The notes beneath the pieces were generated by a model. It ran no database searches, was not told where the DNA came from, and saw only the letters and a list, made by a program, of their open reading frames with translations. Positions 24,686 to 43,260 of a DNA stretch of 48,952 nucleotides are shown here, one piece after another. The stretch lies in IMG/VR virus record IMGVR_UViG_3300005259_000041; one strand, 5' to 3'. This DNA comes from an uncultured virus (IMG/VR IMGVR_UViG_3300005259_000041). Its lineage: Duplodnaviria > Heunggongvirae > Uroviricota > Caudoviricetes. Positions within the stretch are counted from its first letter, which is position 1. Every line of letters begins with the position of its first letter. Position numbers and translations under genes: made by a program.

Positions 24686-24948
24686 CTTGTACCCCACCTT
24701 CCTTTTCCAGTTTTTTGAGGGTTTCCCATTAACTGTTCCATGCGCTGATCATCGAAGTCGCTTGATTTGGCCTGCATAAGCAATTTCCTTATCTCTTCTG
24801 AGAGATTAGCGATTACTTCACCGGGCACACCTTTGGGGTGGCAACCCTGATGCAAAAACCATTTACGACAGAGTTCCTCAACCGCTTCCTGCACTGCTGT
24901 CTTGCGGTTATTGTCTCTGCCTTCTTTAGTAATCCTGCGCTTATCCAT
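24682..24948 (-). CDS. Hypothetical protein
   Basis: Likely start MDKRR overlapping the upstream stop. Confidence 0.55.
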   Translation of the reverse strand: MDKRRITKEGRDNNRKTAVQEAVEELCRKWFLHQGCHPKGVPGEVIANLSEEIRKLLMQAKSSDFDDQRMEQLMGNPQKTGKGRWGTR

Positions 24949-25390
24949 TCTGTTCCTTCTTTCCGTCTGGCCAGTAATATGGAGCTTCTGGCGAGTCTTG
25001 CCATTCAAATTGGCTGTAATGTTTATTGTCTTTGCGCAACAGGGCTGAGCGATGAGACGAATGTACCCTGTCGTCTGTCCACCACGATGGCGGAGATTTA
25101 TCATAGTCCTTGCGACTAAGGCAATCGGTTAACTCGTTAATATGTTGGGCAATCTTAGTGTTCTTATATCCACGCCTTTCCCATTCAGCCACAATGGCAA
25201 TGGTATAGGCTAGTAGGAAGTGTTCATGCCCTTTCCACATTACCACGGCGGGATGATGGGACCAGCCCGTAGAGAGGCCGAGTAGTGTACGAAGAATCTG
25301 CACGGCTTCAACGCGCTGCTTGCCTAGTCTCTGTCTATCTAGGCACTGGGCAGTAAGTCGCGCATCTGGGTATGGCACAAAGGTTTGCAT
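24941..25390 (-). CDS. Pyrimidine-dimer DNA glycosylase / endonuclease V-like (MSMEG_6728 family)
   Basis: MQTFVPY...LDRQRLGKQRVEAVQI...HPAVVMWKG...HSSHRSALLRKD...YYWP. Confidence 0.88.
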   Translation of the reverse strand: MQTFVPYPDARLTAQCLDRQRLGKQRVEAVQILRTLLGLSTGWSHHPAVVMWKGHEHFLLAYTIAIVAEWERRGYKNTKIAQHINELTDCLSRKDYDKSPPSWWTDDRVHSSHRSALLRKDNKHYSQFEWQDSPEAPYYWPDGKKEQNG

Positions 25391-25404
25391 GGAACTCCTC
25401 AATC

Positions 25405-25433
25405 AATATAATTAATAATAATGAAATAGTCAA
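25405..25433 (-). promoter_or_regulatory. Sigma70-type promoter
   Basis: TTGACT-N17-TATATT on minus strand. Confidence 0.75.
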
Positions 25434-25646
25434 TTCCCATTGAACCACTTTGTAAAATACTCTGCCTTTGATTTATAGAAATACCAGACCCACAAAATGC
25501 TCATCGAGTCTCCTGAAAGGCTTCCATCACGCCTTTCCACCATCCCAACTCTGCATCCCTCCAGACCCAGTACAGGTTTTGTCTCATCCAGAAACTCCAA
25601 AGCTGGCGAGTGCTAAGGGTCTTTGCGGGCATGTGAGTGGGTTTCA

Positions 25647-25940
25647 TCAGAATCCCTCAAATAATTTTTTCAAAGAGATGGCCTCTGAGACTTCAAACGG
25701 CTCACATTCATTGGCAGAGTAGCGTGGACTCATCCATCCAATAACCTTAAAGTACTGGGTGGTTGTGCCGTCCGAAATGGCAACTCTCACTGTCTCGCCC
25801 CTATTACCAACGGGCAATGATCCGATTCCCGTATCATAATAATCGCCTGCCTTGGCTGCAGCTGCCTCAAAATTATCTGCTTCAAATTCAATATAGAAAG
25901 AAGCGTTTTCTCTGTTTGTAATGGTGGCTCTAACTTTCAT
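25647..25940 (-). CDS. Hypothetical protein
   Basis: 97 aa, ATGA-coupled. Confidence 0.6.
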   Translation of the reverse strand: MKVRATITNRENASFYIEFEADNFEAAAAKAGDYYDTGIGSLPVGNRGETVRVAISDGTTTQYFKVIGWMSPRYSANECEPFEVSEAISLKKLFEGF

Positions 25941-26269
25941 TTGACCACCTTGTCTTCCTCGCCCGGCCTGGGTCGTAAAGCCGTGTGTCTCATACTATAG
26001 ACGTGCCAAGTGACATATGTGGATGCCGACCTGGCAGCTTTTTCTGGATTGAGCTGATCCACAAGCCAACTGATAATCGACTCTCTATGAATTATTTTCA
26101 TTTCTTAAACCCCTTTAAGCTGTCGGCTAAGGCATCAGCCCTCTCCATGGCAGCCTGGAACATATCATTCAATTCTTTGCTGTTGCGCATGGCAGCCTTG
26201 ATGGCATCTCTAAATCTCTTATCCTGCTGATATTCCAGCCACCGCCACCAAGTTTTATCTATTGTGATT

Positions 26270-26464
26270 TTAGTAGTAGTCATTACCCTTCGCTGCTTCT
26301 TCCAGTCCGAGCCGCATCTCTTTTCCATTTCTTTGTGCGGCATCAAGCTCTTCTTGCGTCCACATCTTTTGTTTCTTACGTACGGCAATGTCGCGCTTCC
26401 TATTTAGTTCCTCAGTGCTTTGTCTGTCGATAAGCCTCTGATGCAACTCCGGATTCTCGCTCAT
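26270..26464 (-). CDS. Hypothetical protein
   Basis: GGAGG RBS, 64 aa. Confidence 0.55.
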   Translation of the reverse strand: MSENPELHQRLIDRQSTEELNRKRDIAVRKKQKMWTQEELDAAQRNGKEMRLGLEEAAKGNDYY

Positions 26465-26722
26465 TTACCCTCCACCGTATCCTGATTTAAATTCTTTCTC
26501 CCACTCTGTTACGGTTCTCTGAATAACCTTGAACATTCTCCATGTGTGTCTCATGGAGCGACTGTAGTCATATACAAATGTTTGATACATTTCACACTTC
26601 CCATTGTGAATGGGTGGGTCCACTATATAGGATTGGCAGACTACATCTGGGATGGCCACAAACCTATAACAACGATTTTTCACAGAGCAGCCTATGCCCA
26701 GACACATTGTTATATCAGCCAT
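26465..26722 (-). CDS. Cys-rich domain fused to TW motif
   Basis: MADITMCLGIGCSVKNRCYRF...SMRHTWRMF. Confidence 0.65.
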   Translation of the reverse strand: MADITMCLGIGCSVKNRCYRFVAIPDVVCQSYIVDPPIHNGKCEMYQTFVYDYSRSMRHTWRMFKVIQRTVTEWEKEFKSGYGGG

Positions 26723-26850
26723 CGTCTTTCCCAGTTCTCTTTATAATATCAAATTTGCGATTTTTAATATCCACAATCGAAACGCTAATGATGGTCGACA
26801 TTGGAAACTCTGGAATGTACACAAAGCCCTGATACTTGGCCCATGTGTTT

Positions 26851-27057
26851 CTAATGGAAAGACTTGGCATTTTTCACCAGAATGACTAAAATTGTCGGCA
26901 AACATAAAGCTAAGAGCAATCCGCCCAAAACATATGTACCGATGGCATCGTCGCGCTTTGCTCGTGGCCAAGAGAGAAACCTATCGCATAGATACACGGC
27001 AAACGTCGCTCCCATAGAAAATATACTCCAAGCGAGCAAAAATATCAAGTACGTCAT
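26851..27057 (-). CDS. Two-TM small membrane protein
   Basis: Two hydrophobic helices; RBS. Confidence 0.55.
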   Translation of the reverse strand: MTYLIFLLAWSIFSMGATFAVYLCDRFLSWPRAKRDDAIGTYVLGGLLLALCLPTILVILVKNAKSFH

Positions 27058-27076
27058 TTAGTGTCCTTTCTGATAT

Positions 27077-27727
27077 TTAAGTTTCCATTCCGCCAGTGGT
27101 TTCAGTTCCGCTGCTATCTTTGACTCTGGCTAGATTTCCCTTTCCTATGGCGATGAGGGCCACATTAACAAACTCCCATTGCAAATAAGACTCCCAGTTG
27201 CTTTTGCCTCCATTGAGAGTGCTCTTGTACCACACGGCAACGCTGGCTGTGCTTAAGGTCGTAATGCCACCAACATACGTGTATCCAAAATTACACTGCT
27301 GTGCCCAAATTGTGGGGCGGATAATCACACTGGGTTTGTTAGAGGGTAAATTCACAATGGCCGCTCTGTCGGCTAGGGTCAGGGTTTGATATCTACTATC
27401 TTGAGAAGATGGAGCCTCTGATCTTATCCTGCGCCAAATCTCATCAACTCCACTAAGGGTCACGCGAGCGGAGAGTCCCTCCAGGGTTGCCACTATATCC
27501 TCACAGGCAAACCCATTCGCGTTAACCACGATACCGCCAGGGGTTACTTTCTCCACTTCCGTTCTCGCGGGGCCAAGATACTCTGGCGGGACAAAATTAT
27601 CGGGTAGGCCAAGGCTGCGATTCAATGCGACGAGTGGGCTGACTGCTTTATTGCTCTTTTTCTGCTTAATGATGAGTGCCGCAATTACTGCAATTGCGAC
27701 GGCTACAAGAATTAAAGACGCTTCCAT
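27077..27727 (-). CDS. Membrane-anchored hypothetical protein
   Basis: GGAGG RBS before MEASLILVAVAIAVIAALII. Confidence 0.65.
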   Translation of the reverse strand: MEASLILVAVAIAVIAALIIKQKKSNKAVSPLVALNRSLGLPDNFVPPEYLGPARTEVEKVTPGGIVVNANGFACEDIVATLEGLSARVTLSGVDEIWRRIRSEAPSSQDSRYQTLTLADRAAIVNLPSNKPSVIIRPTIWAQQCNFGYTYVGGITTLSTASVAVWYKSTLNGGKSNWESYLQWEFVNVALIAIGKGNLARVKDSSGTETTGGMET

Positions 27728-29275
27728 GATAACCTCCAATGTGGAGTGGTGCTCCACTATCAACTATGATTAACGATTAATACAGCGCCTTAGCCATTGA
27801 TACTTTCGCCAAGTCGATTCCACCCTAGCGCTATGTCGTTTGAGTTGGCGTTCCTCATATATGTCATACAATATAGCCACTGAGCCCAAAATCATAGCGA
27901 CAAGAGCTGGAACAAATACCATCATTTGTAGAGGTCACTTATCTTGACGCAATGGCGCCCAGTCTTTTGCCTAATAGAGGCCGCTTTATACCTCCACCAA
28001 GTGGTAGTCATACTGGGAGATTGGCCTTCAAATATTGTTCCAGTTACAGTTGCAAGGGCCCATTTAATCCACTGAAGTCTTTTGCGGCACAAATCTTTCA
28101 TGGCTGTGCTATTCTCCATAAATTTGTTCTATCCGGGTTCGGTATTGTTGCCATAATGAGTTCATGGTCCAATTCCTTTTGATTGTATGCCGTGCGTTCC
28201 ACAAAGGGCTGATTTTCATTAAACCGTCTTTGATTCCTTCATCGTACCACGCACTAAAACTTAGGGGAGATATTTTCATTTTACACTCGTATCCATCTTC
28301 TGGAGCGCTTATGTCTCACGTAATAACAACGCCAGGTCCAAATTATGAATCTCGTTGCACGGCGTTCTTTCCTGTTTTGGTATGACCCCACACAGAAGAT
28401 GGCGAAATAGAATAATATTATCGCCCCAAGTATAACTATCATTTTTTCCTCAATTTCCAAACGTGATGCATGGGCTGAGAGGAATCCATCCGAATGGAAC
28501 GATAGCTTTTCCAATATTTCCAATTAAACTGAACGGTCACTGGCCAGCCCCAACCGGGTGGCATCTGTATTCTATACCAAGAGGCAAATGACATCATGGC
28601 TTTTTCTCCGTGTTTAAACGAACTCGCCATAATACTTCCACCCCTTTTAGGAATGCGTATTCAGCCCAGGTTAGTCTAATATTTCCAGTTCGCCCAAAGT
28701 CATTCACAACTTCCCATTGTCCACGTCCTGCGTATGTGACTTTCCAGTCTTCCATTTCTATCTATCCTTACCGAGCCGCTTTTGATAGTAGCACCAGAGC
28801 CACCAAGTGGTCCGAGGCACGTCACCGTTCCCGGTATACGTTCCTTCAAGCTCTTCAAGCACCCATCCGCCCGTCTCTGAAGCAGCAACTAGCGACCTCA
28901 CCCATTGGCTGAAAGTGATTACGTTGCTCATAAATCATACTCTCCCTGCTTTGCTCTTTTCAGGCTAGTTTGCATTCTCCATAACATCCAATTGTCGGCA
29001 ATAACAACAATGGGATCATCGTCTTCCTTGCCATAGTGTTCTAGCTGTCGACGAATCCAATCGGCGTATTGTAACTCTTTATCTTTCATGGCGTCCCGTC
29101 TGCCAAACACGGTCATAGTCCTCTATGAAGACCTGATACATTGCTCCCTTTTCTTCCACCCACTTACCATAATAAGCCCACAATCTCCAAGTGGACCAAG
29201 GCGTATCATCATGGGCAAAGTCAAAACGGCCTTTGGAATCAACCGTCATTATCCATTTTGACCATTCTACAAATG

Positions 29276-29707
29276 TCATTTCACTTCTACCCACTTATCG
29301 TTTGGGCTGGGGTGTTCGGTTAATTCCGCCTTAATCCATGCCTGGGCGGCCCACAGTCCTCCGAAATATAAGGTCTTACCGTCGCCCCCTGTCACGTCTA
29401 CCCAATCATAGCCGAAATCTGCTACTGGGGTGAGATTGAGACGCGGGGTCCATTTCCATTCCTGAATCTTATACCGCTCTCCATTCGTGAGAATTCTAAA
29501 CCGAGTTCCATTGGGGCGTATATATGGGTGTTCTGGCATGGCGGGAGAGTGGGCAGTCGGTATCCTGGATTGTGTGGTGCTAACAGCCGGGGACGGTCCC
29601 ATGGGAGCCACCGTTTGCTGCAAAGCCCCTGACATAATCCAGCAAGCGCTGAGTGCCAAAAATATAATAGCCATAACGCTTAAATACTTCACAAAGGAAT
29701 CGCTCAT
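29276..29707 (-). CDS. Membrane-anchored hypothetical protein
   Basis: N-terminal TM, P/S linker, RFRI...YKIQ domain. Confidence 0.65.
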   Translation of the reverse strand: MSDSFVKYLSVMAIIFLALSACWIMSGALQQTVAPMGPSPAVSTTQSRIPTAHSPAMPEHPYIRPNGTRFRILTNGERYKIQEWKWTPRLNLTPVADFGYDWVDVTGGDGKTLYFGGLWAAQAWIKAELTEHPSPNDKWVEVK

Positions 29708-29807
29708 TTTTTCTCCTGTTCTTTCTCTTTACTTCTCACATATGTCAGATAAAACCTCTCATAGACGGTTTGCCTCAGTCGCCATCGAGCCCATATAGTT
29801 CTTATTT

Positions 29808-30008
29808 TCATTTGCCTTTTCCTGGTTTAGACACCACTATTGAAGCTCCCCATATGGTTGCGAGGGCCCCGGTGCTCAACACGTCTTTTATGGTATAGTC
29901 CGTTAAGGCATTAAAGGATTTCCAAAGACCCCATGTCTCCCTAATACTAAATTCTGGGCGAGCTTGAACATACCAAGTTGTCTTTAGCCATTTTTCATAT
30001 GGAGTCAT
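29808..30008 (-). CDS. TW-motif microprotein with capsid-like C-terminal peptide
   Basis: MTPYEKW...FSIRETWGLWKSF...VLSTGALATIWGASIVVSK. Confidence 0.6.
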   Translation of the reverse strand: MTPYEKWLKTTWYVQARPEFSIRETWGLWKSFNALTDYTIKDVLSTGALATIWGASIVVSKPGKGK

Positions 30009-30153
30009 TCCACTATCCGATAAGCCTTTCGTTTTAGAAATCCGACTAGATGCGATCCGACGGCAAGTTCTTCTTTGCTTAATTCTGCCCGATAAGCCAG
30101 CCAAGCGTGTAACATTGAACCGTAATGGACATCAATCCATCGGACCATAACAG

Positions 30154-30366
30154 TTAACCCCTCTCTAGTTCTTTTGCCCGGGCTATAATTTCGGGAGTGA
30201 TTTTCACTTGGCGAGTATAGGCCGTGGCATATAAAGCACCCAGGCTACCCTTAGGTGCCCCTTCTCGGACGCACATATCAATTACTAAAATTAACAATTC
30301 AGTCTGTCTATCCGACAGGCTTTCAGCTAATTCACTGACGATTTCCACTTCTTCTTTAGGAGACAT
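30154..30366 (-). CDS. Hypothetical protein
   Basis: 70 aa in operon. Confidence 0.55.
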   Translation of the reverse strand: MSPKEEVEIVSELAESLSDRQTELLILVIDMCVREGAPKGSLGALYATAYTRQVKITPEIIARAKELERG

Positions 30367-30369
30367 TCT

Positions 30370-30738
30370 CTACCTTCTTCCGCATTTTAATAGGCGATTA
30401 TTCCAGGTCCGTTTAATATCCCAATATCTCTTTAGTTTCTCATTGTACACTTTATTGAGTTGGTTATCTAGATATGAGGCCACTCCCATTATCCCACTGC
30501 CAGTTAATGCCATATTCAGCCCCCACCACCAATAAGTCTTATGGATTTCAACAAACCACCATAGGAATAGTGTTTTTAAGCTGGAGGCTAAATACGCAAT
30601 GATGGGATAGAGAAAGCAAATTCCGCCAATAGCCAATAGGATTATGCCAATTGCGAATACACAGACATTCATCCAGCCCATTTGATTAATTTCATGAATG
30701 TCTAATTTACTAAATAGCTTATTCAGCGCTTTTGCCAT
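30370..30738 (-). CDS. Multi-TM protein with C-terminal TW motif
   Basis: Two to three hydrophobic helices; DIKRTWNNR. Confidence 0.65.
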   Translation of the reverse strand: MAKALNKLFSKLDIHEINQMGWMNVCVFAIGIILLAIGGICFLYPIIAYLASSLKTLFLWWFVEIHKTYWWWGLNMALTGSGIMGVASYLDNQLNKVYNEKLKRYWDIKRTWNNRLLKCGRR

Positions 30739-30889
30739 TGTTCTTTCTCTTTCTGTATTTCCTTAATCAGTTTTGAAAACCAATGATGTTGCCAAGTAGC
30801 CCGAACAGATCGGGTGCGAAATCTCATTTTGAGATTTTTCATAGTCTTCTCCAAGAATTTACGATTAACATTAATTGTTTTCACGTATA

Positions 30890-30918
30890 AATATAATCCC
30901 TGATTATCAGAATGTCAA
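30890..30918 (-). promoter_or_regulatory. Sigma70-type promoter
   Basis: TTGACA-N17-TATATT on minus strand. Confidence 0.8.
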
Positions 30919-30944
30919 TGAGGGTGCGCGGCATATAATAAAAG

Positions 30945-30963
30945 AAGACCCCGAAGGGGTCTT
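30945..30963 (-). terminator. Terminator closing the microprotein operon
   Basis: AAGACCCC-GAA-GGGGTCTT flanked by A/T tracts. Confidence 0.8.
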
Positions 30964-30998
30964 TTCTCGGCCCAATACCCTTTTTTCCGCTACTTTTA

Positions 30999-33900
30999 TT
31001 ATCCCGCCGGGAACATTTTCTGATAGCATTTCCACATCGTCCAATTCCTTGAAATGGAATGATGTTTATCGGTCGTCTCGAAGGTACCCCAAGAGGCTTT
31101 AGTCCATGTTATGAATGACATATCATTCTCCATTTTATCTGAAGAGAATAGAAATACCAAGTGTTGGCTATTTTATGTGCGGGTCTCATCTGTTCTGGAT
31201 TATTCATATTCATTTCCCACAATCCATTTTCTATAATACGAATATATGTTCCAGACCCTAGAGATACTGGGTGGTCCGAATCGGGGGCCACCGAAGGGAT
31301 GGACTGAAGTATTAGAATATGTTCTTACCCAATCTATAAACGTCACCATTCACTCAATATCCATTTTTTATAATATCCATATAATTTCCATGTTTGGGAA
31401 ACGGAAAGGAGAGTTCCGACCCCATCGAAGGGGAAAATAGGCTCAGTCTCATATAAATCTCTTCGTAATATCATCCAATCCCTAAACGTCATTCTCCGAA
31501 GACACTGTTCCGTAAGTCTCATTTAACACCTTCATGGAAAAATTTATACAATTTCCAAAGTCGCCAAGTTCCAGTCGGAGTGTCATTAAGAGCTGGATCG
31601 GATAGGCTTAAACCCGATGTGTTATCATTATATACTCTTAAATAAAGGCGGGACCATTCTTTAAAGCTCATTTAGCTCTTTCTAATCGTGCCTCGCGGCT
31701 TACCTGTTCTCTCCACTTTAAATATAAAGCGGTGTTTACGTCTATTATCTTGCGCATCCTACCGGTAGTCCATAATTCATAAGTCCGCCATGTTTCCCGC
31801 ATGGAATAATTATGATCGTTCATTACTATGGGTTTCATTTCTTCCTCTTAGTAGATGGTAATATAAGATTTTTACGCTCTTCTGACATATCATTCTCAAA
31901 GACAGCATACCACACGTAAATGTCCCAAGTCGACCTAATATTCATTGCCATTCCGAAAATACCCGCCTATGAATCTCCGAAGCCGGAGGCCCAAAGGCAA
32001 GATACCAAATCCAAGTGATGTAAATGCTTTTGGACTTTTCCGCTTTAATTACTTTCATGTCTTCCATAGGGGTCCAAATATACGATATATAGGGGTCCAA
32101 AAACACGATACCAGAACCAAGTGAGATTAATGCTTTTGGATTCATCCGCTTTCATTACTTTCATTTCTCATCCTCATACTGACAGGCAATTTTTATATAA
32201 TCCTTCCAGTTGAAGGAGGGATTGCGCTCTATGTGATGCCGGAGAAGATATGCCCGTAATAATTTATAATGGAACCGGCCCCAGGTGGAACTAATGTTAT
32301 TCATCGCCCTAAAGCCAACTGATAGGAAGCGAATCTCTCCAATTCCTCTTTTAATCTAAGAAACATCTCATGTAACATCCAGGTGTTGGAAGGAGTATCA
32401 GAAAAATTCAAATCCTCCCTCCATACCCATTCGGCAAAAGACAATTCCGTAATACTCCTCGAATACATTTCAGCATCAAACGGACGCATTTATCTATACC
32501 TCTTTTCCAGAAAACGCCAGTGTTTATAGATGACATCATATGTCTCTTTGCAATCGAGATAGGGATAACATATCCAAGTACGGGCAATACTGGGTTTATA
32601 TGGTTTGGCCATCTTTCGCTTCATTGCCCAAAGATCTGCCCCAATGGCAAGGACTATTACACCGAAAAACAACAATACGGGGACTAAAGGTGAAAGGGAA
32701 ACCATATTTAATATTCTCCGTCATATTCGCTATAATATAAGGTATCATATACTTTCCTGTAAAACTGCCACGCGAAACAATGCCAAGTATTACGTATACT
32801 GCGCTTATTATATTTCCGATGTCTTATCGAATCGGCAATGAAGTGGGAACAGATAACCAGGGTCATAATAATTACTGATCCCAAATATATCAAAACGCCA
32901 CACCATCCGTTCATAGTAAACATTAGACTCCCATTTCCCGTTTTCGTCGTGGGATATATTCATAACGCCAAGTGTCCCGAATGGAGGAGCTTTGAGTTTC
33001 TCCTTTTAAAGCATCCCGAATTTCGGCACCAGCAATTAACATAAGACCCATTATCCCTATGGCAATTCCAAAAATAGTAATAAACATTTCAATTCCTATG
33101 GCCATTTAATTTTTCCAATTCCCCAAGCCTTCTATAATAATCTAGGACTTCGGTTAAATGTGGATCAGAAACATATCTAATCCAAACATCCTTAATATTT
33201 CTCATAATGTTCCCTTATGCGTGTCGCTCATACCACTTACGTAAACCGAGTTTGTATAAGTAAATGGTCCAAGTGCCCCAAACATTAATCATAATGCTCC
33301 CCGAACTCGCCTATATTCATAAGCGGTTAAATAAAAACTCGCCCAAGCCAACCATGTCTGCCGAACGGTCCTAATGCCAGTTCCAGAGGTTTCAAAGGCA
33401 TGATCCTCATAAAGCCAGTATTTGTAACTACCGGGTGGGCAATAGATTGGCACGATAATATCTCCAAAGGGCCCAAGTTTCCTGCGGAGTATCCGTAAGG
33501 ACGGCAAATTGCAATGACCGAGCCCATTCTATAAACGTATACTGATATAAGTTAAAGGAATCGCTCATAATGCCCATACTTTCTTTGCCAAAGGGAAACA
33601 TAATATAAGTCTTCTTTATATCTCAACCATAACTGCCAGTTTAATCCAATATGGGTATCGGGTTCATAGGGAGATAGGTTTTTAGAAATCAGCCAGTCTT
33701 TAAAGGTAACCTCTGAAATCTCACAAAATCTCATTTATAAGTTCCTTTCCTTAAGCCAGTGTAATAGCTTTTCCATAAAACCCAGGTAAGCCATATGCCA
33801 GTACTATATGATCCCAAAGGAGGGGTTCCATAGGTACGTGCATATAGCCAGTCTTTAAAGGTTACTTGCATTTTTAAAGCTTCCTATAGCATTTCCATAA

Positions 33901-34699
33901 ATACCAAGTCTTCCATACTGGCATAATACCATTGCCCAATACTCCTAACCAATCATTCAAAGACATCCATCCAGCCCAATGTCTATTCGCGCCCAAAACA
34001 CCGGGATAATCATATACAAATTCGCCCCGCTGTACACTGGCAATAAATTCTTTCAGGGTTACATCACGGGATACATAATTCATAATTATCTCTTCACTAT
34101 CCTATATAACCTGACTTTAAAAACAGCATTAATCCAAATCACATTGCCGGGAACGAACATGGAAGAACTCGAATCCGGCCATGCCTTACCCGTCACCCAA
34201 CGCCATAAAATAGAACCATAAGGAGCATCAGCAGGTTTTCTCATCGCTTTAACTTATCTTCAGATTCTTGTATTTTAGAATTAGCACGCTTTATGGCCCT
34301 AGTCCAGGAAGTACACCATAACCAATTCTGCCAAGTTACATTTATATTCATTTTCTTTCCATAAGAGCGCACCATGCCTTAGACCAAGCGTGTCGGGCCC
34401 AATTTAACTTAATACTCGTCAGGATATGAATTTTAAGAGTAGGATTATTGATTACGTTTTTAAACTTCATTTCTTCCTCGCTATTAAATACCATCCATAT
34501 GCATCCCATGTCCAAGAGATAGAAACAACTCCATTACGAGGGCCAAGACACATACTAAGGAATTCTCTAAAGGTCATCATTGTCCTACATACCCCCAGGC
34601 TACCCGATAACGACTAAACGCTTTCCATGTCCAATCTATAGAAACAGCCTTAGGAATGGGACTCAAATACATACTGAGGAATTCTTTAAAGGTTAGCAT
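30999..34699 (-). other. Operon of 26 consecutive TW-motif microprotein genes (25-71 aa)
   Basis: Hand-translated, mostly ATGA-overlapping: 34577-34699, 34467-34580, 34348-34470, 34241-34351, 34086-34244, 33874-34083, 33731-33871, 33552-33734, 33428-33568, 33289-~33453, 33215-33292, 33089-33205, 32923-33105, 32708-32923, 32490-32705, 32301-32489, 32161-32304, 32045-32164, 31942-32058, 31835-31945, 31668-31838, 31519-31671, 31343-31522, 31200-31349, 31109-31213, 30999-31121. Confidence 0.85.
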
Positions 34700-34700
34700 T

Positions 34701-35177
34701 CTATTTCTTCATCTCTAAAAGAGCAGCCAGTTCCAGAAAGGTAAGGATACTGGTTTCATTCATATTGGCATTTATAACAATGTCACAGTCTATAAGGACA
34801 TAAGTCCCACGAGAAGAGTCAGTATACATATTATGGTTGGATATGGCTTCTCTCAGTATTCTAGTTTTACCCCATGGACATTTGGAACAGTCTAATATGC
34901 CACTATCCGTAAGTATACAATTCGGATTCTTTATCTCATTATGCCGGGTGATACTTCCCCGTGCGGCTCTCCATCGTTGATTAGGATTAACGACTAGTTC
35001 AGCACGATTATAACGCTGTTTATACTGTTCGTTTAAATGCTTAAACCATTGATTATGCTCTTCTTCTGCACTGTCTACCGGCTCGGGAATACACGGGTTA
35101 AAGTCGCGTATGTACGAGTGTATACGGGTGAGAGTGGCATCGAGGATTTTAATCTGGTCTTCTGTCAGGGCTCTCAT
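34701..35177 (-). CDS. Cys4-family protein heading the microprotein operon
   Basis: NC...DCSKCPW...DC; TSILTFLELAALLE. Confidence 0.7.
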   Translation of the reverse strand: MRALTEDQIKILDATLTRIHSYIRDFNPCIPEPVDSAEEEHNQWFKHLNEQYKQRYNRAELVVNPNQRWRAARGSITRHNEIKNPNCILTDSGILDCSKCPWGKTRILREAISNHNMYTDSSRGTYVLIDCDIVINANMNETSILTFLELAALLEMKK

Positions 35178-35192
35178 TATGGCCTCAGTATC

Positions 35193-35221
35193 AATATAAT
35201 TTAGAAGGGGTCAATTGTCAA
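35193..35221 (-). promoter_or_regulatory. Sigma70-type promoter of the microprotein operon
   Basis: TTGACA-N17-TATATT on minus strand. Confidence 0.8.
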
Positions 35222-35492
35222 GTGTAAGTCGGCCGGAGTAAATACGGGAATATATAAGGGTTAAAATCGTTCTAAGGGAAGGCTGGGCAAGGGGTGTAAC
35301 AGGAAGATAGAAGGAACGGTTAAATGTAGGTAGATACTGGGTTTGAGATAGATAAGTAGGAGAGGAAGGATACTGGGAAATGGTGGCGGAAGGATGGGTG
35401 AATACTGNNNNNNNNNNNNNNNNNNNNNNNGGTGAGTTCTTTATGTCGCAGTGGAGGAGAAAGGAGGGGAGATAAGTAGGAGGATACTGGCT

Positions 35493-35599
35493 AAAGTGAG
35501 TCATTTATGACACACTGTATGCGAGGTTAAGTGCGATAATAGGGTATAATATGAGGAATGTACTCTGATAATCAAGGTGTGACAAAAATGACTCACTTT
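35493..35599. repeat. 23-bp imperfect inverted repeat (21/23) in non-coding junction
   Basis: AAAGTGAGTCATTTATGACACAC (35493-35515) and GTGTGACAAAAATGACTCACTTT (35577-35599). Confidence 0.85.
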
Positions 35600-35803
35600 C
35601 ACTTAAGTTGCGAAAATACTACCCTCCAGACAATAAAAGTCTGAGGTAATATCAGTATCTATCCTTCCCTAAGTCTAAGCCGAGCATCAAGCCGCTTGCA
35701 CTTGTGAGAGACTTGGCCAGTATCACAGTATAGCGCGACATTGTGTTGTGCTAGATACTGGCGCGAGTGTAAGAGACTTAGATACTGGCGCGGAGGTAGT
35801 CCC

Positions 35804-36196
35804 ATGAACATCCTCAACGCGAAGGGCCTGGGCTTCAAGGTCACCGTCAAGACCGTCAAGAAGCACAAGTTCGTCGAAGGGCGCCCCGAGGAGTCCCACA
35901 AGGGCGTCTACAACCTCACCCTGAGCGGGGGTGGCAAGTCCCACGAGGCGAAGAACATCGTCGGCACCCACGACCTCTTCGCCAAGGCTTACGCCATGGC
36001 CGCCATCTACTTCCCCAAGGGCTACGCCAAGTTCCAGGCGCAGGCCAAGGTGGAGCGCGACGCCAACAAGGCCGCCGCGAAGGCCAGCCGCAAGGCCAAG
36101 AAGGCCGCCGCCGCGCCGGCCGACCTCAAGGGCCTCCTCACCCTGCTCAACCGCCAGAAGAAGGGCAACGGGAAGGTGCTGGCCCTGTTCCTCTAG
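35804..36196 (+). CDS. Lys/Ala-rich basic protein, paralog 1
   Basis: GGAGG RBS; near-exclusive C/G third codon positions; aligns end to end with 44151..44552. Confidence 0.85.
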   Translation: MNILNAKGLGFKVTVKTVKKHKFVEGRPEESHKGVYNLTLSGGGKSHEAKNIVGTHDLFAKAYAMAAIYFPKGYAKFQAQAKVERDANKAAAKASRKAKKAAAAPADLKGLLTLLNRQKKGNGKVLALFL

Positions 36197-36352
36197 GCCA
36201 GTATCTATGTCCCTACCCTTCCACCCCAGTATCCTCTTAGCATAGATACTGGGCACAATCTGAATTAACTCCTGGGGNNNNNNNNNNNNNNNNNNNNNNC
36301 TGGCTGCTGATAGATAAGTATCTATCACAACGGGAGGAATTAAGGAGGCGCC

Positions 36353-36823
36353 ATGGAGAACGAAGTACCTCTAGACAATCCGTTCTTTTACGCGTATCTT
36401 AAGGCACTAGTCCGGTTCGTGGCAGACCCTACGCAGCAGCGTCTAGATGCTGTCAATCACCAAAGGAACTTGCGCTCAGAGAAGACGTGGAAAGCCCCAG
36501 TGGCAGAACATGGATACTGCCACCCCTTTGGGGACTATGCGTCTGAGAATGGAGTAAGCTGCATAGACGGGAGTGACATGGATGCTCGGGAGGAAGGCGA
36601 GGGGCGTTGTTGTCCTATGTTAAGCGCTTCTACTTCCCTTCTCAGACAGGAATGTCAACTCGCGTGTGGCTTCTCTGCGGACGTGGTGCTGAGAGTTATC
36701 GAGACTCTGGCGGCATATGAGGCAAGGTATCCAGACTGGCCCCGGTGGAAAGAGTTAAAGGAGGAAGACCATGGGACAGGCGAAACTGAGGGGGACCAAG
36801 GAACAGCGGGTCGAGCAGGCTAA
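36353..36823 (+). CDS. Cys4-family-like protein
   Basis: YCHPF...C...CCPM...C; VVLRVIETLAAYE. Confidence 0.65.
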   Translation: MENEVPLDNPFFYAYLKALVRFVADPTQQRLDAVNHQRNLRSEKTWKAPVAEHGYCHPFGDYASENGVSCIDGSDMDAREEGEGRCCPMLSASTSLLRQECQLACGFSADVVLRVIETLAAYEARYPDWPRWKELKEEDHGTGETEGDQGTAGRAG

Positions 36824-36941
36824 GGCTCGGCGGGTGGGGGTGCCGGTCAATGTCACGACCCGCCTCCAGAAGAACGGCAACCTCAAGAGGGGGTTCGCGG
36901 GCCTGCTCCTCTCCCGCCTCACCACCCTCTTCCACGCCTAG
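36771..36941 (+). CDS. Small basic protein
   Basis: MGQAKLRGTKEQRVEQAK; GGAGG RBS; not in ORF track. Confidence 0.6.
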   Translation: MGQAKLRGTKEQRVEQAKARRVGVPVNVTTRLQKNGNLKRGFAGLLLSRLTTLFHA

Positions 36942-36954
36942 GAGCAAGAAGGCA

Positions 36955-37113
36955 ATGCCCGAAAAGGAAGAAGAGTCCTCGGAAGAAGTCATGTCCGAGC
37001 TGCGGAGGACAGTGGCTCTGAAGGCGGCGGTGGACTTTGCGAAGGAGCAGACCACCACCTCCGAGGCAGTCGACATCGCCCGCACCTTCGAGGAATATCT
37101 GAAGTTCGGATAG
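36955..37113 (+). CDS. Small hypothetical protein
   Basis: MPEKEEE...ALKAAVDF...ARTFEEYL; high GC3. Confidence 0.6.
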   Translation: MPEKEEESSEEVMSELRRTVALKAAVDFAKEQTTTSEAVDIARTFEEYLKFG

Positions 37114-37609
37114 ACCTCGCCAGTATCTAGAGCTGGCGGCTAGGAGATAAGATACTCCTTCTGGCCGCCATAATGTAGATACTGACATAGTCGCGCCAGT
37201 ATTAAGATACTGATACTGGCTGCCCCTTTTCGAATAGGAGAAGAACATGCGATTTAAGTCGAAGATTATCTACTTCGGGGCACTCACATTCAAGAATGGC
37301 ATTGTCCGTACGTGCCATGTCTGGATGGGGGTGGACAATCGCTATCGTGTCTGGGACGGTATCCGGTTCTACTCCCCGGATGACGTTCTCCCCGCCAGCC
37401 TCGCCTTTGCCTAGTCTGTCCTTCATGGTGAACGGCGGACTATGGCGCGCCGTTTGATCGCCTATAACCTAAGGAGGTCGGTCATGGACTATGGTTAGCA
37501 GGTTAGGATAGTCCAATCTCCAGATCTAGCAGGCCGGCCACAGAAACATTGTCGGCCTGCTATCATGTGGATACTGGACGAAATAGAGGGCCCCAGAAAG
37601 GAGGTGTCC

Positions 37610-37957
37610 ATGCAGTATTTCTGGCTGTTTCTCCTCGCCATCTGCATCGTTCTTATCGTGCGGAACGAGCGAGTATACGAGTGGAGGGGCGCCCAGATTC
37701 GCCTGATTAGCAAGACTACTAAGGCGCTCATCGAGTATTACTACAATGGGGACTGGTCTACCCCCAACGGATGGGAGGAACATCAGGCCCGCTTCGAAGA
37801 AATCCTCGATGCATTTTACAATGTGCACGAGGCTCGGTCCTATGTTGGCACGCTTCTTGATATTGGCTGCTGGGATGGGGCCAAGTATCTGGAGGCTACC
37901 TACATCGGGAACCTGGACGGGGCTGCTCGGGAAGAGATAGCCCAGATGAAGAGATAG
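37610..37957 (+). CDS. Membrane-anchored hypothetical protein
   Basis: AAGGAGGT RBS before MQYFWLFLLAICIVLIV. Confidence 0.7.
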   Translation: MQYFWLFLLAICIVLIVRNERVYEWRGAQIRLISKTTKALIEYYYNGDWSTPNGWEEHQARFEEILDAFYNVHEARSYVGTLLDIGCWDGAKYLEATYIGNLDGAAREEIAQMKR

Positions 37958-38182
37958 GAGGCAAGGCCATGGTACTGAAGCCGGGAAGTCGTCTGCCTCA
38001 TATCCGGGTCGACACCCTGGACGTGAGCGAGGCCATGTACGAGGACGTGCGGGAGAAGATGGACACCCTTCGAACTCGCACTCCCCCCAAGCCCACCCTG
38101 TATCGCCTGGAAGGAGGCAACGAGGAGTAGTCGTCATCCTGATACTGGGCCCGAACATGTCATACTGAAAGGGAGGTGACAG

Positions 38183-38470
38183 ATGAGTAACAAGCAGTCC
38201 CGTGCCGCAGCCAGGACCAACGGGAATCTTCTCGTTGCCCTCTCCACCATCAAGGACTTGGGCGAGGAGATTCAGCGCCTCAACAAGGTCATCCTCAACG
38301 GCACCCTCTCTTCCCTGGAGATGAGGGACATGCTCCTGGACGATCTCCACACCTGCGCCCTGGCCGATGATGAGGTCTGGGCCTTCAACCGGAAGAGCCA
38401 GGAGGCCTTCGAGCAGTTCGTCGGCAGCCAGGGGGAGATGCAGCCCCCCGAGCCCGAGACCATCTCCTAG
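38183..38470 (+). CDS. Hypothetical protein
   Basis: GGAGGT RBS, high GC3. Confidence 0.7.
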   Translation: MSNKQSRAAARTNGNLLVALSTIKDLGEEIQRLNKVILNGTLSSLEMRDMLLDDLHTCALADDEVWAFNRKSQEAFEQFVGSQGEMQPPEPETIS

Positions 38471-38534
38471 TATCCAGAGCCAGCCAGTATCTTTAAAGTC
38501 GTGAGATACTGGCTGTAATGTGGATACTGGATTA

Positions 38535-39225
38535 TACCACCGCATGTCGAAACCGGGGCGCAGCAAAGCCCAGCCAGTTTACCCTGGCTACGTGACGGTG
38601 GATAAAGGGTAGGTCCAGTGATACTGCACATCACCTAATCCCCGGCGTGGACAGCATGTCTGAGACGAGGCTCTTAGACCAGATGTGACGGTACGAGTCG
38701 CCGCCTTATGCGACGACGGAGAGCCGCTTTAGCGACTCTAAAGACTGGGCACCTAAACAGCAGGCGGGTGGCTAGTTTAGGAAGATACAGCATTAACCGC
38801 TGCATGTAAGGGTATGGATCCCCGTTGGTTGGAAACAAATCCCAATCAAGCGTGACGGCGGTTAAGTGAGGGTAGGCTTAGCGAAGGTTGATACTGCATG
38901 CGCACGGCACTCTACGGCCAAGTCGGGGCGTGACAGTATAATCCGTGCTGAAGCAGGCGGAAGGCTAAGCGGTTAGACGGCAGGAGGGTGGCCAGTCTAA
39001 TGAATGATACTGATTCAACTGTCGCATGCATTCCCAGTGTATGGGGAGACTTATATTCCCATACATCAAAAGGTGGATGGCGAGCGATAGATGCTCACCT
39101 ATACCAGCGTGTCGACAGTAGGTAGGTTGGCCGTTCGTTGTTACTGTAGATGCGAGAGAAGTCTCTCCCTACGGTAAAGAAGAAGGGGCCGACGTGATAG
39201 CAGCAGGAGGGTGGCGGCTATCTAT
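38535..39225 (+). ncRNA. Candidate large structured ncRNA made of three tandem A+B hairpin modules
   Basis: No sense ORF of 60 aa or more; repeated loops GGTAG (x3) and GCAGG(C/A)GGGTGGC (x3) closed by covarying stems. Confidence 0.75.
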
Positions 39226-39240
39226 AGAAAGGGGGTGCGG

Positions 39241-39558
39241 ATGGTACAACAGTTGGACATTCATCAAGCAGTAGCAGCAGCGAAGCATCTCATTCGCTTC
39301 CCCCACAGTAGAAAGGCGTGGGAGACACTGGCGAGCAACACTTATCCCATGCATGGTTCGGCTGATGCAACCTGCCCCTTTGACTGTCAGGATTGTCCGT
39401 TGAGAGGGGGCTGTTCTATTCTTAACCTGCCTGAGTTTGTCTGTGGTCGGACTACCCATCGGGAGGCGACTAAGACAAATAAGATGGGAGAGGTCATCCT
39501 CCTCCTCATCCAGTATGTGGCTTATGTGGAGTCTAAGGGGGTGCTAGATGAAACATAA
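39241..39558 (+). CDS. Cys4-family protein
   Basis: AWETL...CPFDCQDCPL...VC; GEVILLLIQYVAYVE. Confidence 0.75.
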   Translation: MVQQLDIHQAVAAAKHLIRFPHSRKAWETLASNTYPMHGSADATCPFDCQDCPLRGGCSILNLPEFVCGRTTHREATKTNKMGEVILLLIQYVAYVESKGVLDET

Positions 39559-39567
39559 GGGTACATC

Positions 39568-39810
39568 ATGATTTTCACCTTCATAAGCGTAAGAGCGCCT
39601 GGCAAGAAAATCATCATTGATTCCATTGCCAAGGACAAGGGCACCTTTCAACCCGGCTCGTATGTACCCACCAACGAGCAGGAGTTACTGGGGGTTCTTG
39701 AGGAAGCCTACGAGATTCAGGAAGATCTCATATGGCAAATGGAGCACCGACCAATGTGGGCACGGGCTAATGGCTACGATATCATCTACGGTAATGGGGA
39801 GGAGCCTTAG
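39568..39810 (+). CDS. Hypothetical protein
   Basis: 80 aa in operon. Confidence 0.6.
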   Translation: MIFTFISVRAPGKKIIIDSIAKDKGTFQPGSYVPTNEQELLGVLEEAYEIQEDLIWQMEHRPMWARANGYDIIYGNGEEP

Positions 39811-39825
39811 TTAAGGAGGTACGCC

Positions 39826-40203
39826 ATGGAGTTCGGATGGAGAGACTATCGGGTGTCTGGCCCGGTGTGGAACGAGAGGGGGCTCTTTTTCAGTTTCATC
39901 ACACCGGCCGATTGCGTGGACCCCTGCCCCTGCTGCAACGAACTGTCGGTGCACTTGTCGGCTGCCATCGTGGAGGAGATTAACAACTCCTCCAACATTC
40001 ACTACCTCGACATCGAGCGCGTTGACGGTGGTGGGGCCGGTGGCGGGGAAGCCTTCGGGAACCGGGGGCGCCTCAAGGACATCGTGAAGGACCCGGAGGA
40101 GGGAATCATCTTCCGCTATTACAATGGGCGGAAGAAGGCGTACACAGTAACCCTCTCTCATGAGAAGTGGCAGGAACTGAGCCACGTTCGGATGCCCCTT
40201 TAG
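39826..40203 (+). CDS. Hypothetical protein
   Basis: AAGGAGGT RBS, 125 aa. Confidence 0.7.
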   Translation: MEFGWRDYRVSGPVWNERGLFFSFITPADCVDPCPCCNELSVHLSAAIVEEINNSSNIHYLDIERVDGGGAGGGEAFGNRGRLKDIVKDPEEGIIFRYYNGRKKAYTVTLSHEKWQELSHVRMPL

Positions 40204-40392
40204 TATGGGAGGAGCCTTAATCTTTATCCTGGCCCTTTCCTCTTCCTGAAACCCAGTATACATTCTTCCCCCTCCCTCTAAAATGGGAGAATCGCATAGT
40301 CGCAGCCAGTATCAAATCCATGTGTTGATGTACAGGATAAGATACTGACTGTTCTAATGCCTCGCTATCTCCCCTTTCAATAAGGAGGATGG

Positions 40393-40779
40393 ATGGGAAA
40401 TCCGTGGGTGAAAGAACAAGTCGGGATTGTGAACCAACTGCTGAAGGACCCAGATAATGTCCAACTCTGGGAACAGTTGGCCTGTATTACGGGGACTCAA
40501 CGCCTAGACGACAATACTACTGTCCAATGTTGCCGGTTTGACCCATACCGAAATGCCATTGAGTTAAGCCGGTGTGATTCCTGTCCCCTGAGGGTGGACA
40601 GAACGGACGAGATGAGAGGACTGGGAGGGCCAATAGCACAATACCTCTGTCGTAGGTATCGTGGTCAGCAAACCTGGAACATTGAGTCTGGTGAAATCGT
40701 CCGCAGGCTGCTGGAGTTCCTGGCCTTTATCCAGGTCGAGCCTCCAACCCTGAAGGTCAAGAAGAGCCGTGCCCGCTAG
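40393..40779 (+). CDS. Cys4-family protein (tandem copy 1)
   Basis: LWEQL..ITG...C...CDSCPL...YLC...GEIVRRLLEFLAFIQ. Confidence 0.8.
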   Translation: MGNPWVKEQVGIVNQLLKDPDNVQLWEQLACITGTQRLDDNTTVQCCRFDPYRNAIELSRCDSCPLRVDRTDEMRGLGGPIAQYLCRRYRGQQTWNIESGEIVRRLLEFLAFIQVEPPTLKVKKSRAR

Positions 40780-41119: not shown

Positions 41120-41146
41120 GAGACTGCCTATGAAGCACGGTGTACC

Positions 41147-41506: not shown

Positions 41507-41765
41507 TTACCTGGGCTGAACGGAACGCTAAGACNNNNNNNNNNNNNNNNNNNNNNNNNNNNNNNNNNNNNNNNNNNNNNNNNNNNNNNNNAAGCGTGGC
41601 TGCCTTCAATGTCCCCTCTTCATCAAAGAGTGTTTGCGCGATGGGGGCCAAACACAGGCCGACAGTTACATCTGCTGCAAGGGAATCTGGGACATGAGGA
41701 TAGACTTAAGTGAGGGCGAAATCACTCGTCGCTTGCTAGAGTTTATCGCCTATGTCCAACTCTGA
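41503..41765 (+). CDS. Cys4-family protein (tandem copy 4; spans N gap)
   Basis: After the gap a different frame reads CLQCPL...YICC...GEITRRLLEFIAYVQL*. Confidence 0.7.
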
Positions 41766-42531: not shown

Positions 42532-42532
42532 C

Positions 42533-42790: not shown

Positions 42791-42800
42791 GGAGGGAATC

Positions 42801-43250: not shown

Positions 43251-43260
43251 GATTTATACT

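Follow-up and report, generated by a model that had tools for sequence, protein, structure and literature searches.

Two adjacent minus-strand operons between 25.4 and 34.7 kb of a tailed-phage genome fragment encode a large family of tryptophan-rich microproteins built around one short helical motif. The fragment, 48,952 nucleotides from an uncultured virus (IMG/VR record IMGVR_UViG_3300005259_000041; Duplodnaviria, Heunggongvirae, Uroviricota, Caudoviricetes), is referred to below as the window. In this interval we found 48 open reading frames (ORFs) of 24-85 aa (median 52 aa), of which 33 carry the strict motif and most others a variant that differs by one residue. The motif cannot be the product of chance. 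Comparison with a colinear relative, the 332,730-base viral contig G001, whose genes on either side of the array share 67-77% nucleotide identity with those of the window (blastn), indicates that the array is a tandem family in birth-and-death evolution with one element held fixed. As to function, the explanation that we put first, tentatively, is that these are early host-takeover or anti-defence microproteins, in which the motif helix (the TW helix) would be a fixed scaffold carrying diversified surfaces.

Organization and transcription signals of the two operons

The first of the two operons was originally noticed in an inspection of the letters alone (the sequence-only reading), which described 26 consecutive minus-strand ORFs of 25-71 aa (34699-30999), each with the motif or a close variant, between a promoter at 35193-35221 and a terminator at 30945-30963. 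All 26 are present as open frames, all 15 of the peptides that it quoted are found, and both signals are confirmed. The strict form of the motif, [TN]W-x-x-[WYF], occurs in 20 of the 26 ORFs, and the remaining six hold one-position variants. A 158-aa lead gene precedes the 26 ORFs. The operon has a coding density of 99.6% and is the most AT-rich part of the window (39-40% GC). The description of the ORFs as mostly ATGA-coupled holds for overlap in general (20 of 26 junctions) but is slightly overstated for the exact 4-nt ATGA overlap (11 of 26); five junctions have gaps of 0-5 nt. The limits originally drawn were too narrow, since an identical second promoter stands at 30918-30890 and the family continues behind it to about 25430. 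This second operon (25430-30842, minus strand) consists of 26 tightly packed ORFs of 24-216 aa and is 98.7% coding, with the strict motif in 15 ORFs and a variant in several more. Of the 51 junctions in both operons, 38 are overlaps, including 22 of the ATGA kind.

Promoter P1 (35193-35221, minus strand) has the form TTGACA-17-TATATT and agrees with the consensus at 11 of 12 positions; the same form is found at the syntenic place in G001. Promoter P2 (30890-30918, minus strand), with the same form and the same 11/12 agreement, lies directly after the operon 1 terminator and is likewise conserved in G001. The terminator itself (30945-30963, minus strand) is intrinsic, with an 8-bp stem that includes five GC pairs and is followed by a T-run. 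Its G001 counterpart (locus L018, 2443-2461) differs in sequence and keeps the 8-bp stem through paired changes. In the G001 array the promoter form recurs ahead of the lead gene and behind a terminator, and a third copy lies inside operon 1. The window has six exact TTGACA-N16-18-TATA[AT]T sites; G001 has 12, of which five stand at syntenic places. Outside the array the window has four other exact TTGACA-N17-TATATT promoters, at 8695, 10295 and 19219 (plus strand) and 22601 (minus strand), and three of the four have syntenic G001 counterparts (143533, 145197 and 153600). This distribution points to a limited, conserved group of early promoters of the consensus type. The canonical -35/-10 elements, together with the use of Shine-Dalgarno (SD) sequences described below, suggest that the host has standard promoters and initiates translation from SD sequences. 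Because the promoters are of the consensus host type, the early expression proposed by the sequence-only reading is plausible, and the host RNA polymerase would transcribe both operons at the start of infection if the sigma-70-type consensus is a reliable guide.

The lead gene (34701-35177, minus strand) is an ORF for a 158-aa Cys-containing protein that is 63% identical to its G001 ortholog. A search with a two-sequence alignment (A2) of these orthologs returned only the window and G001 forms among 5.8 billion clusters (two matches). The protein has no match in Pfam or PHROGs and no usable match in the ESM Atlas. A match to the IMEF cargo family in NCBIfam was disregarded at 18.9 bits against a cut-off of 100. 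Its AlphaFold2 (AF2) model, built from two sequences, is poor, with a mean predicted local distance difference test score (pLDDT) of 35.8.

Sequence and codon make-up of the motif

Within 25400-34750, the three minus frames hold 29 copies of the pattern TWxx[WYF] and the plus frames a single one, against a mean of 0.79 (standard deviation 0.87, maximum 4) in 300 dinucleotide-preserving shuffles. The longer pattern [STN][IVM]xx[TN]Wxx[WYF] is found 21 times on the minus strand and not at all on the plus strand (shuffle mean 0.03). Many members had also been said to start with a [TS]F-x-[ED]-W helix, and the corresponding N-terminal pattern [ST]Fx[EDQSTA]W indeed shows 12 minus-frame and 0 plus-frame occurrences (shuffle mean 0.24).

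The sequence-only reading placed the conservation at the level of the peptide, and codon usage agrees with it. The serine at position -4 is written with TCC (6), TCT (2), AGT (4) and AGC (2), that is, eight TCN and six AGY codons, and the use of both unrelated codon sets argues for constraint on the peptide. The T/N codon varies too (ACT 18, ACA 8, ACC 4, AAT 3, AAC 3), and the information content of the motif lies on codon positions 1 and 2, with the wobble positions free to vary. A motif imposed by the DNA is thus ruled out by codon usage.

Residue preferences were compiled from 70 motif instances from both phages, with positions 0, +1 and +4 fixed by the search pattern. At these three, position 0 is T in 55 and N in 15 instances, position +1 is W in all 70, and position +4 is W in 31, Y in 29 and F in 10. 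Among the other positions, -4 is S (19), T (18) or N (16) in 53 of 70 instances, -3 is I (42), P (9) or V (8) in 59, +7 is Y (28) or F (12) in 40, and +8 is K (13) or R (9) in 22; leucine is the commonest residue at +3 (19 of 70). The shared element is therefore about 12 residues long and can be written [S/T/N]-[I/V/P]-x-x-[T/N]-W-x-x-[W/Y/F]-x-x-[Y/F]. S, T, N and D are the classical N-cap residues of helices. We read the motif as a helix with an N-cap at -4 and a large hydrophobic seam at -3, +1, +4 and +7/8.

The motif has no set place along the protein. In 35 window instances it is N-terminal in 7, in the middle in 13 and in the C-terminal third in 15. This bears on whether the ORFs could be precursors of ribosomally synthesized and post-translationally modified peptides (RiPPs), with the motif as the recognition sequence of one modifying enzyme. 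Loci that encode several lanthipeptide precursors bear a superficial resemblance to such an array of tandem small ORFs, and a short conserved element beside a variable remainder would suit a precursor family. The variable position of the element leaves no fixed leader, however, some members carry membrane anchors, and no modifying enzyme, protease or transporter family was detected among the array proteins with Pfam, PHROGs or NCBIfam, all of which makes a RiPP-like system very improbable.

Coding capacity and evolution of the array

As computed, 52 of 53 starts are ATG, and one gene was later re-set to GTG at 33453. In operon 1 this leaves 25 ATG starts among the 26 ORFs, the exception being 33453-33289, where only GTG or TTG is available. 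Of the 53 starts, 35 are preceded by an SD-like 4-mer, compared with 21% of random positions on the same strand, and GC skew is negative across 24-35 kb. In all 18 window-G001 pairs that were compared, the proportion of nonsynonymous differences (pN) is below that of synonymous differences (pS), with pooled values of 0.271 and 0.721; the ratios are rough, as synonymous sites are saturated. Nine of the 19 two-helix profile members (see below) are present as predicted proteins in a library of 1.84 billion representative proteins, which shows only that gene callers accept them. The array ORFs are real protein-coding genes under purifying selection, and the diversified library of paralogous microproteins that the sequence-only reading proposed is real. 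The opposing explanation, in which the motif is a repeated DNA element or the ORFs are chance products of AT-rich non-coding DNA, could draw on the low GC content of operon 1 and on the fact that most ORFs fall under the usual gene-calling lengths. It is hardly tenable, given that the motif is confined to one strand and always in an open frame, that it uses both serine codon sets and varying wobble positions, that the ORFs have ATG starts, SD-like motifs, ATGA overlaps and pN below pS throughout, and that Rfam has no match in the array.

G001 holds an array at the syntenic place (156.8-168.4 kb, minus strand). The strict nine-residue regular expression matches 28 times in its 333 kb, 21 of them in the array, three in a plus-strand cluster at 265-270 kb and four scattered. 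A hidden Markov model (HMM) built from 34 window motif segments gives 18 G001 matches at a score of at least 10, of which 16 lie in the array (one match in the reversed-sequence control), and 14 at a score of at least 12, all 14 in the array. A second small cluster of motif ORFs in G001 lies at 265,223-266,669 (plus strand), with three strict regular-expression and two HMM matches.

Gene turnover in the array is heavy, and blastn, which aligns the flanks, finds almost no match inside it. Reciprocal best hits at E<1e-5 link four of 26 ORFs in operon 1 and 13 of 25 in operon 2, the latter colinear. Paralogs at E<1e-3 were found for 21 of 58 window proteins, and the best paralog is adjacent for 11 and within three genes for 13, against 10% expected. 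In 11 ortholog pairs the motif window is the best-conserved part, with 74 of 132 residues identical (56%) compared with 169 of 422 (40%) elsewhere (Fisher p 0.0013). The family thus expands through tandem duplication and is subject to fast turnover between the two related phages. The G001 ortholog of the operon 2 ORF 28931-28758 (about 159,850-160,046, minus strand) is split over two frames, the N-terminal helix and DTPK in one and the RTW helix in the other; it could be a frameshifted pseudogene or an assembly error.

Just two lineages can be compared. The locus search with the A2 alignment of the lead protein recovered only G001 among viral contigs, along with two metagenome contigs, and both of these are 100% identical to G001. 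With the 158-aa Cys protein alone the same locus search found no relative, and scans of genome contigs were likewise empty. No match was obtained by blastn of 30300-35250 against 50,697 phage records.

Architectures and structure model

The motif occurs in four kinds of architecture. The two-helix type, with about 19 window members (alignment A1), opens with an [ST]F-x-[ED]-W helix at the N-terminus, which a loop of widely differing length joins to the TW helix. Several proteins of the N-terminal type start with the motif, e.g., MNINVTW, MNNISSTW, MAMNIRSTW and MPSLSIRNTW, and one peptide of 25 aa barely exceeds the helix. The membrane-anchored type has a hydrophobic, membrane-type helix and a basic linker ahead of the motif, with six members in the array and one outside, hence at least seven in the window. 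In the fusion type, ORF 26722-26465 couples the motif to a Cys-rich phrog_20586 domain.

For the two-helix type, an AF2 model of microprotein 22 (from a 38-row alignment of two-helix members of both phages) shows helices at residues 3-15 and 32-47, with a pLDDT of 76.8 and a predicted template modelling score (pTM) of 0.55. Helix 2 of this predicted hairpin begins at the T-P of DTPTGTW, and the loop has a pLDDT of 60-67. Given the N-cap and hydrophobic make-up of the motif and its position as helix 2 of the hairpin, it may be the conserved structural core of a fast-evolving fold. A complex prediction with two copies of microprotein 22 (alignment A3) scored 0.02, with a mark of 0.42 and no control runs, and speaks neither for nor against self-association.

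Homologs of the Cys-rich domain of the fusion protein are found in four phage records, each matching residues 1-46 only, and the two that were seen in full are without the motif: in Maribacter phage Panino the domain is a free-standing 58-aa protein and in Synechococcus phage S-CBS4 it is the end of a 104-aa protein, neither with a TW helix. At the syntenic G001 position lies a different Cys-rich protein with the motif at its N-terminus. Taken with the anchored and helix-only forms, these cases show that the TW helix is retained in several contexts, and a motif that is portable across unrelated architectures fits a shared interaction element. The same retention could reflect either a docking tag or no more than the fusing and truncating of genes where one paralog dominates an ATGA-coupled array.

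Scaffold or docking tag

In the explanation that we favour, two adjacent early operons of a phage-G-like jumbo phage are filled with lineage-specific, tandemly amplified, Trp-rich and mostly basic microproteins, which would act as host-takeover or anti-defence effectors. The TW helix would be a conserved scaffold as well as an interaction face, packed on helix 1 in cis or on a partner in trans, and the loops and tails would diversify to reach different targets. We infer the takeover or anti-defence role from the position, promoter type, size, strand and turnover of the genes and from the precedent of phage SPO1 (see below).

Several observations weigh against this explanation. No member has a homolog of known function. 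The hairpin model reaches only moderate confidence (pTM 0.55), and the loop in it is ill-defined. With a hydrophobic moment of 0.30, the motif helix hardly differs from control windows (0.28). Helix packing does not by itself account for the nearly invariant T/N ahead of W. Finally, helix 1 is missing from some motif-bearing proteins, namely peptides of 24-25 aa, membrane-anchored forms and the fusion to a Cys-rich domain that stands alone in other phages; a pure one-fold core does not predict this, and it favours the alternative in which the motif is a common docking tag.

According to that alternative, which sharpens the proposal of the sequence-only reading that the peptides dock on one conserved target, the TW helix would be a portable short linear motif that addresses some fifty early microproteins to one shared partner, such as a host hub protein, a phage protein like the 158-aa lead product, or a chaperone or protease by which their removal is timed. 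With their variable parts, the microproteins would supply the hub with different activities, and the rest of each protein would diversify by tandem duplication in an arms race. The same 12-residue element does appear at either terminus, behind membrane helices and in fusion with the phrog_20586 domain, whose homologs match outside the motif only; the 24-25-aa peptides barely exceed the helix and must bind something; and T/N-W is conserved beyond what hydrophobicity needs, in what is also the best-conserved part of the orthologs. Against this, the partners named are candidates only, and it is hard to see why fifty proteins should compete for a single site. An ATGA-packed array can yield the same mosaic, with no tag function at all, when a dominant paralog is fused or truncated, and the residue pattern is that of a generic N-capped packing helix. 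We regard the docking tag as possible, though doubtful. The roles that the sequence-only reading suggested, as decoys or inhibitors of host defence sensors or as adaptors for a phage hub protein, and the 158-aa Cys protein as that hub, are conjectural.

Composition and a possible membrane role

The small array proteins contain 6.3% Trp, compared with 0.7% in the large plus-strand proteins of the phage, and 16% aromatic residues. The median isoelectric point (pI) of the 48 small proteins is 9.3, with values above 8.5 in 35 and below 6 in five. Summed over the 12-residue motif window, the Wimley-White interfacial energy is -3.0 kcal/mol, against +3.2 kcal/mol in control windows, a comparison that is partly circular since W and other aromatics define the motif. 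Trp-rich, cationic helices with these properties might lie at the cytoplasmic face of the host membrane, some of them self-anchored, and perturb its energy state, transport, division, superinfection exclusion or the timing of lysis. The seven or more members that combine a membrane-type helix, a basic linker and the motif fit such a role. For those very members, however, another element that binds the membrane would be superfluous beside the anchor; the motif helix has no raised hydrophobic moment, and the five acidic proteins stand apart. Binding to an interface also needs neither the invariance of T/N-W nor an N-cap pattern, and we consider a membrane-interface function unlikely overall.

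Family, fold and distribution searches

The claim that no such family has been described held in every collection searched. No microprotein matched at the curated cut-off among 55 array proteins compared with Pfam-A and PHROGs v4 (E<=0.1), or among 52 compared with NCBIfam 20 and PADLOC-DB 2 (E<=0.01). The only solid family matches were DenV (PF03013) for 25390-24941 and phrog_20586 for the N-terminal domain of 26722-26465. A match of microprotein 17 (32304-32161) to ComW in NCBIfam was disregarded (E 0.003, 17.9 bits against a cut-off of 55). The family alignment A3 had a best E of 1.8 in a sequence search of the PDB, and the ESM Atlas held no usable match for a microprotein. Fold searches with the hairpin model gave no PDB match at E<=10 with Foldseek and a best E of 6.1 in BFVD, a 50-residue hairpin offering little signal; VIA-align over 48,161 chains reached a best Z of 4.2, from generic helix pairs, with none at Z>=5. 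A literature search returned no description of a comparable phage microprotein family.

The distribution is equally narrow. With the A1 profile, 11 matches were found among 1.84 billion representatives at E<=0.001, namely nine of the window's own proteins, one close variant (P0007) and one spurious repeat protein, and A3 had seven matches among 5.8 billion clusters, all from this lineage. Since short ORFs are under-called in protein libraries, the lack of outside matches is weak evidence of rarity. Against phage G, the family profile gave one weak match (E 0.017).

Phage G also suggests a further function, as it offers a precedent for expanded small nucleic-acid-binding regulators in lineage-specific expansions of about 35 zinc-ribbon proteins and of Myb-type helix-turn-helix (HTH) proteins, as reported in a review (PMC7824862). 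The major head protein of G001 is 54% identical to that of Bacillus phage G, its best match among 312 phage records, and our microproteins are basic, contain Trp and are predicted to form helical pairs. A diverged Myb domain was nevertheless rejected. The Pfam models PF13921 and PF00249 have 11 and 7 matches in phage G and 0 at E<=1 in G001, and no Myb or HTH Pfam model matched any of the 55 window proteins at E<=0.1. An hhalign comparison of the family (A3) with the phage G Myb domains (A5) gave a probability of 1.6%, with 11 tail columns aligned. The AF2 model shows two helices rather than the three, with three spaced Trp, of a Myb domain, with the qualification that its loop is of low confidence, so that a third helix is possible. 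The membrane-anchored members do not fit a nucleic-acid-binding function either, and we judge it quite improbable.

Relation to known systems and significance

The host-takeover module of Bacillus phage SPO1 consists of 26 mostly small genes, transcribed early by the host polymerase, whose products are proposed to shut down host processes (10.1101/569657). Our array resembles it as a block of small genes behind host-polymerase-type promoters, with two consensus promoters of presumed activity, one terminator and 52 packed ORFs. It differs in that about 45 genes share one helix, and no PHROGs family matches them; that library includes SPO1-type phages, and the SPO1 products gp37-gp60 were compared only through it. 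To our knowledge, the SPO1 takeover genes have not been described as one paralogous family with a shared motif. With the phage G expansions the array has in common a related capsid lineage and a large expansion of a small domain in one jumbo phage genome. Unlike those expansions, its members are without Cys ligands or a Myb signal, are shorter, and are packed in early operons.

T4-type phages have hyperplastic regions, in which small early ORFs turn over fast behind early promoters, between conserved core genes. Most such ORFs are unrelated ORFans, whereas here one motif-sharing family fills the block. Rop-type hairpins and other helix-loop-helix miniproteins resemble the predicted model in having two antiparallel helices of about 15 residues and a loop, but neither sequence nor fold searches gave a match to them. 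High Trp content and net positive charge recall the Trp/Arg-rich cationic membrane-active peptides. The microproteins differ from these in being ribosomal, intracellular products of phage early genes, with a fixed N-capped motif and often a second helix. The family itself is undescribed, while a plastic block of early small genes and a lineage-specific expansion in a jumbo phage are known kinds of arrangement. Its distinctive features are its scale (about fifty paralogs), the tiny size of its members and the one portable helix found across architectures.

No part of phage genomes is less well understood than the early small genes, which are also the usual home of host shut-off and anti-defence factors. 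A single recognisable helix makes such ORFans amenable to joint study as one family: one type of mutation (W to A in the motif) is applicable to many members, one peptide can be used as bait, and two genomes reveal which members are stable and which are replaced. The array further illustrates the extent to which length cut-offs hide coding capacity, with 9 of 19 two-helix profile members in the 1.84-billion library. Should the motif prove to be a docking element, it would provide a simple handle on the host hub that a jumbo phage attacks first. As a docking tag it would imply a viral 'motif network' running through one host or phage hub, or joint clearance by one protease or chaperone; we know of motif networks from eukaryotic viruses and of none from phages.

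Members of the family

The 26 microproteins of operon 1, all on the minus strand, are given here in order from the promoter. Microprotein 1 (34577-34699, 40 aa) and microprotein 2 (34467-34580, 37 aa) are of the two-helix type (TFKEF ... SIDWTWKAF and TFREF ... SISWTWDAY) and are tandem duplicates with 56% identity (E 9e-12). They are followed by microprotein 3 (34348-34470, 40 aa), with the variant motif SIKLNWARHAW; microprotein 4 (34241-34351, 36 aa), with an N-terminal motif (MNINVTWQNW); and microprotein 5 (34086-34244, 52 aa), with the variant SILWRWVTG. The next four are again two-helix proteins. Microprotein 6 (33874-34083, 69 aa; PVWKTWYLW) has a reciprocal best hit with G001 (E 2e-13), while microproteins 7 (33731-33871, 46 aa; TFKDW ... 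GIWLTWVLW) and 8 (33552-33734, 60 aa; TFKDW ... HIGLNWQLW) share the same N-terminal helix signature. Microprotein 9 (33428-33568; TFIEW ... DTPQETWALW) has 46 aa, or 57 aa if read from 33601.

Microprotein 10 (33289-33453; TVRQTWLAW) has 54 aa from a GTG start that is uncertain, the open frame 33528-33289 being without an in-frame ATG. Microprotein 11 (33215-33292, 25 aa) overlaps its upstream gene by ATGA and is essentially a bare helix (MINVWGTWTIY), and microprotein 12 (33089-33205, 38 aa) has the N-terminal variant motif NIKDVWIRY. Three members with a membrane helix come next: microprotein 13 (32923-33105, 60 aa), recognised by its hydrophobic window and bearing the variant SIRDTWRYEY, microprotein 14 (32708-32923, 71 aa), with SIRNTWHCF, and its paralog microprotein 15 (32490-32705, 71 aa; E 2e-5), with SIARTWICY. 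Microprotein 16 (32301-32489, 62 aa) is of the two-helix type (SFAEW ... DTPSNTWMLH) with the variant TPSNTWMLH, and microprotein 17 (32161-32304, 47 aa) has the motif twice (NISSTWGRF and NPSFNWKDY).

Microproteins 18 (32045-32164, 39 aa; SINLTWFWY) and 19 (31942-32067, 41 aa; SIYITWIWY) are tandem duplicates with 67% identity. The motif is N-terminal in microprotein 20 (31835-31951, 38 aa; MAMNIRSTWDIY) and reads SMRETWRTY in microprotein 21 (31668-31838, 56 aa). Microprotein 22 (31519-31671, 50 aa) is the two-helix member that was modelled by AF2. Microprotein 23 (31343-31522, 59 aa) is also of this type (TFRDW ... SVSQTWKLY), as is its paralog microprotein 24 (31200-31349, 49 aa; E 4e-8), which has the variant SISRVWNIY. 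The operon closes with microprotein 25 (31109-31213, 34 aa; KIANTWYFY) and the two-helix microprotein 26 (30999-31133, 44 aa; SFITW ... SISRNWTMW).

Operon 2 contains the same architectures, again on the minus strand. Its two-helix members are 30008-29808, 29279-29079, 29089-28928, 28931-28758, 28597-28439, 28279-28109, 28119-27922 and 26101-25937. A membrane helix precedes the motif in 30738-30370, 28442-28281 and 27925-27770, and the motif is N-terminal in 26870-26715 and 26283-26098. The fusion of the motif to the Cys-rich domain (26722-26465) matches phrog_20586 with an E of 6e-9. Four outlying ORFs are found elsewhere in the window: a 56-aa member with a membrane helix and SVAFTWWWF (15610-15780, plus strand), ORFs of 78 aa with SVLVTWEAY (15791-16027, plus strand) and 65 aa with NIKTTWCAW (17530-17727, plus strand), and a 28-aa ORF with the N-terminal variant MNIKWRWLRY (19041-19127, minus strand).

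Genome setting

The window comes from a large phage genome, and its own proteins, as found in a public protein collection, sit on a contig of 172,952 bases. Its plus-strand genes code for GyrB with an intein, an enzyme similar to IMPDH and GMP reductase, a full-length DnaJ and ThyX. At 21-22.6 kb the minus strand encodes an Hsp20-like protein and a metallophosphoesterase. The large genes of G001 are those of a jumbo myovirus and include a T4-type DNA polymerase, UvsX, GroEL, DnaJ, PhoH, RtcB, portal, terminase and baseplate wedge proteins. In the GyrB-like gene (36-2174, plus strand) the Pfam model Intein_splicing matches between the Toprim and C-terminal domains, and the G001 counterpart has 992 aa.

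The minus-strand block is closed by a gene for a DenV-type pyrimidine dimer glycosylase (24941-25390, minus strand; PF03013, E 3e-25) with its own promoter-like site at 25433-25405. It has no counterpart among the G001 array ORFs, the part of G001 that was compared.

To the right of the array the GC content rises from about 40% to 52-58% across 35500-48952, where no tested ORF had a Pfam match. The tRNA genes of the window lie in this GC-rich part; ARAGORN reports four, three of which are confirmed by Rfam. The fourth, a tRNA-Ser according to ARAGORN (42329-42411, minus strand), is not reported by the Rfam tRNA model at the gathering score. The Rfam scan found nothing inside the array, and its sole matches are the tRNAs at 43.3-43.9 kb. 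The gene at 35805-36197 (plus strand) codes for a basic protein rich in Ala and Lys. The 8-mer GATACTGG has 25 copies in the window, compared with 1.3 expected, and 22 of them lie between 35.3 and 45.7 kb (both strands, 35333-45689). The copies are often paired around small GC-rich genes, and the 8-mer may serve the block that lies right of the early promoter, either as a promoter specific to the phage or as a site for a regulator.

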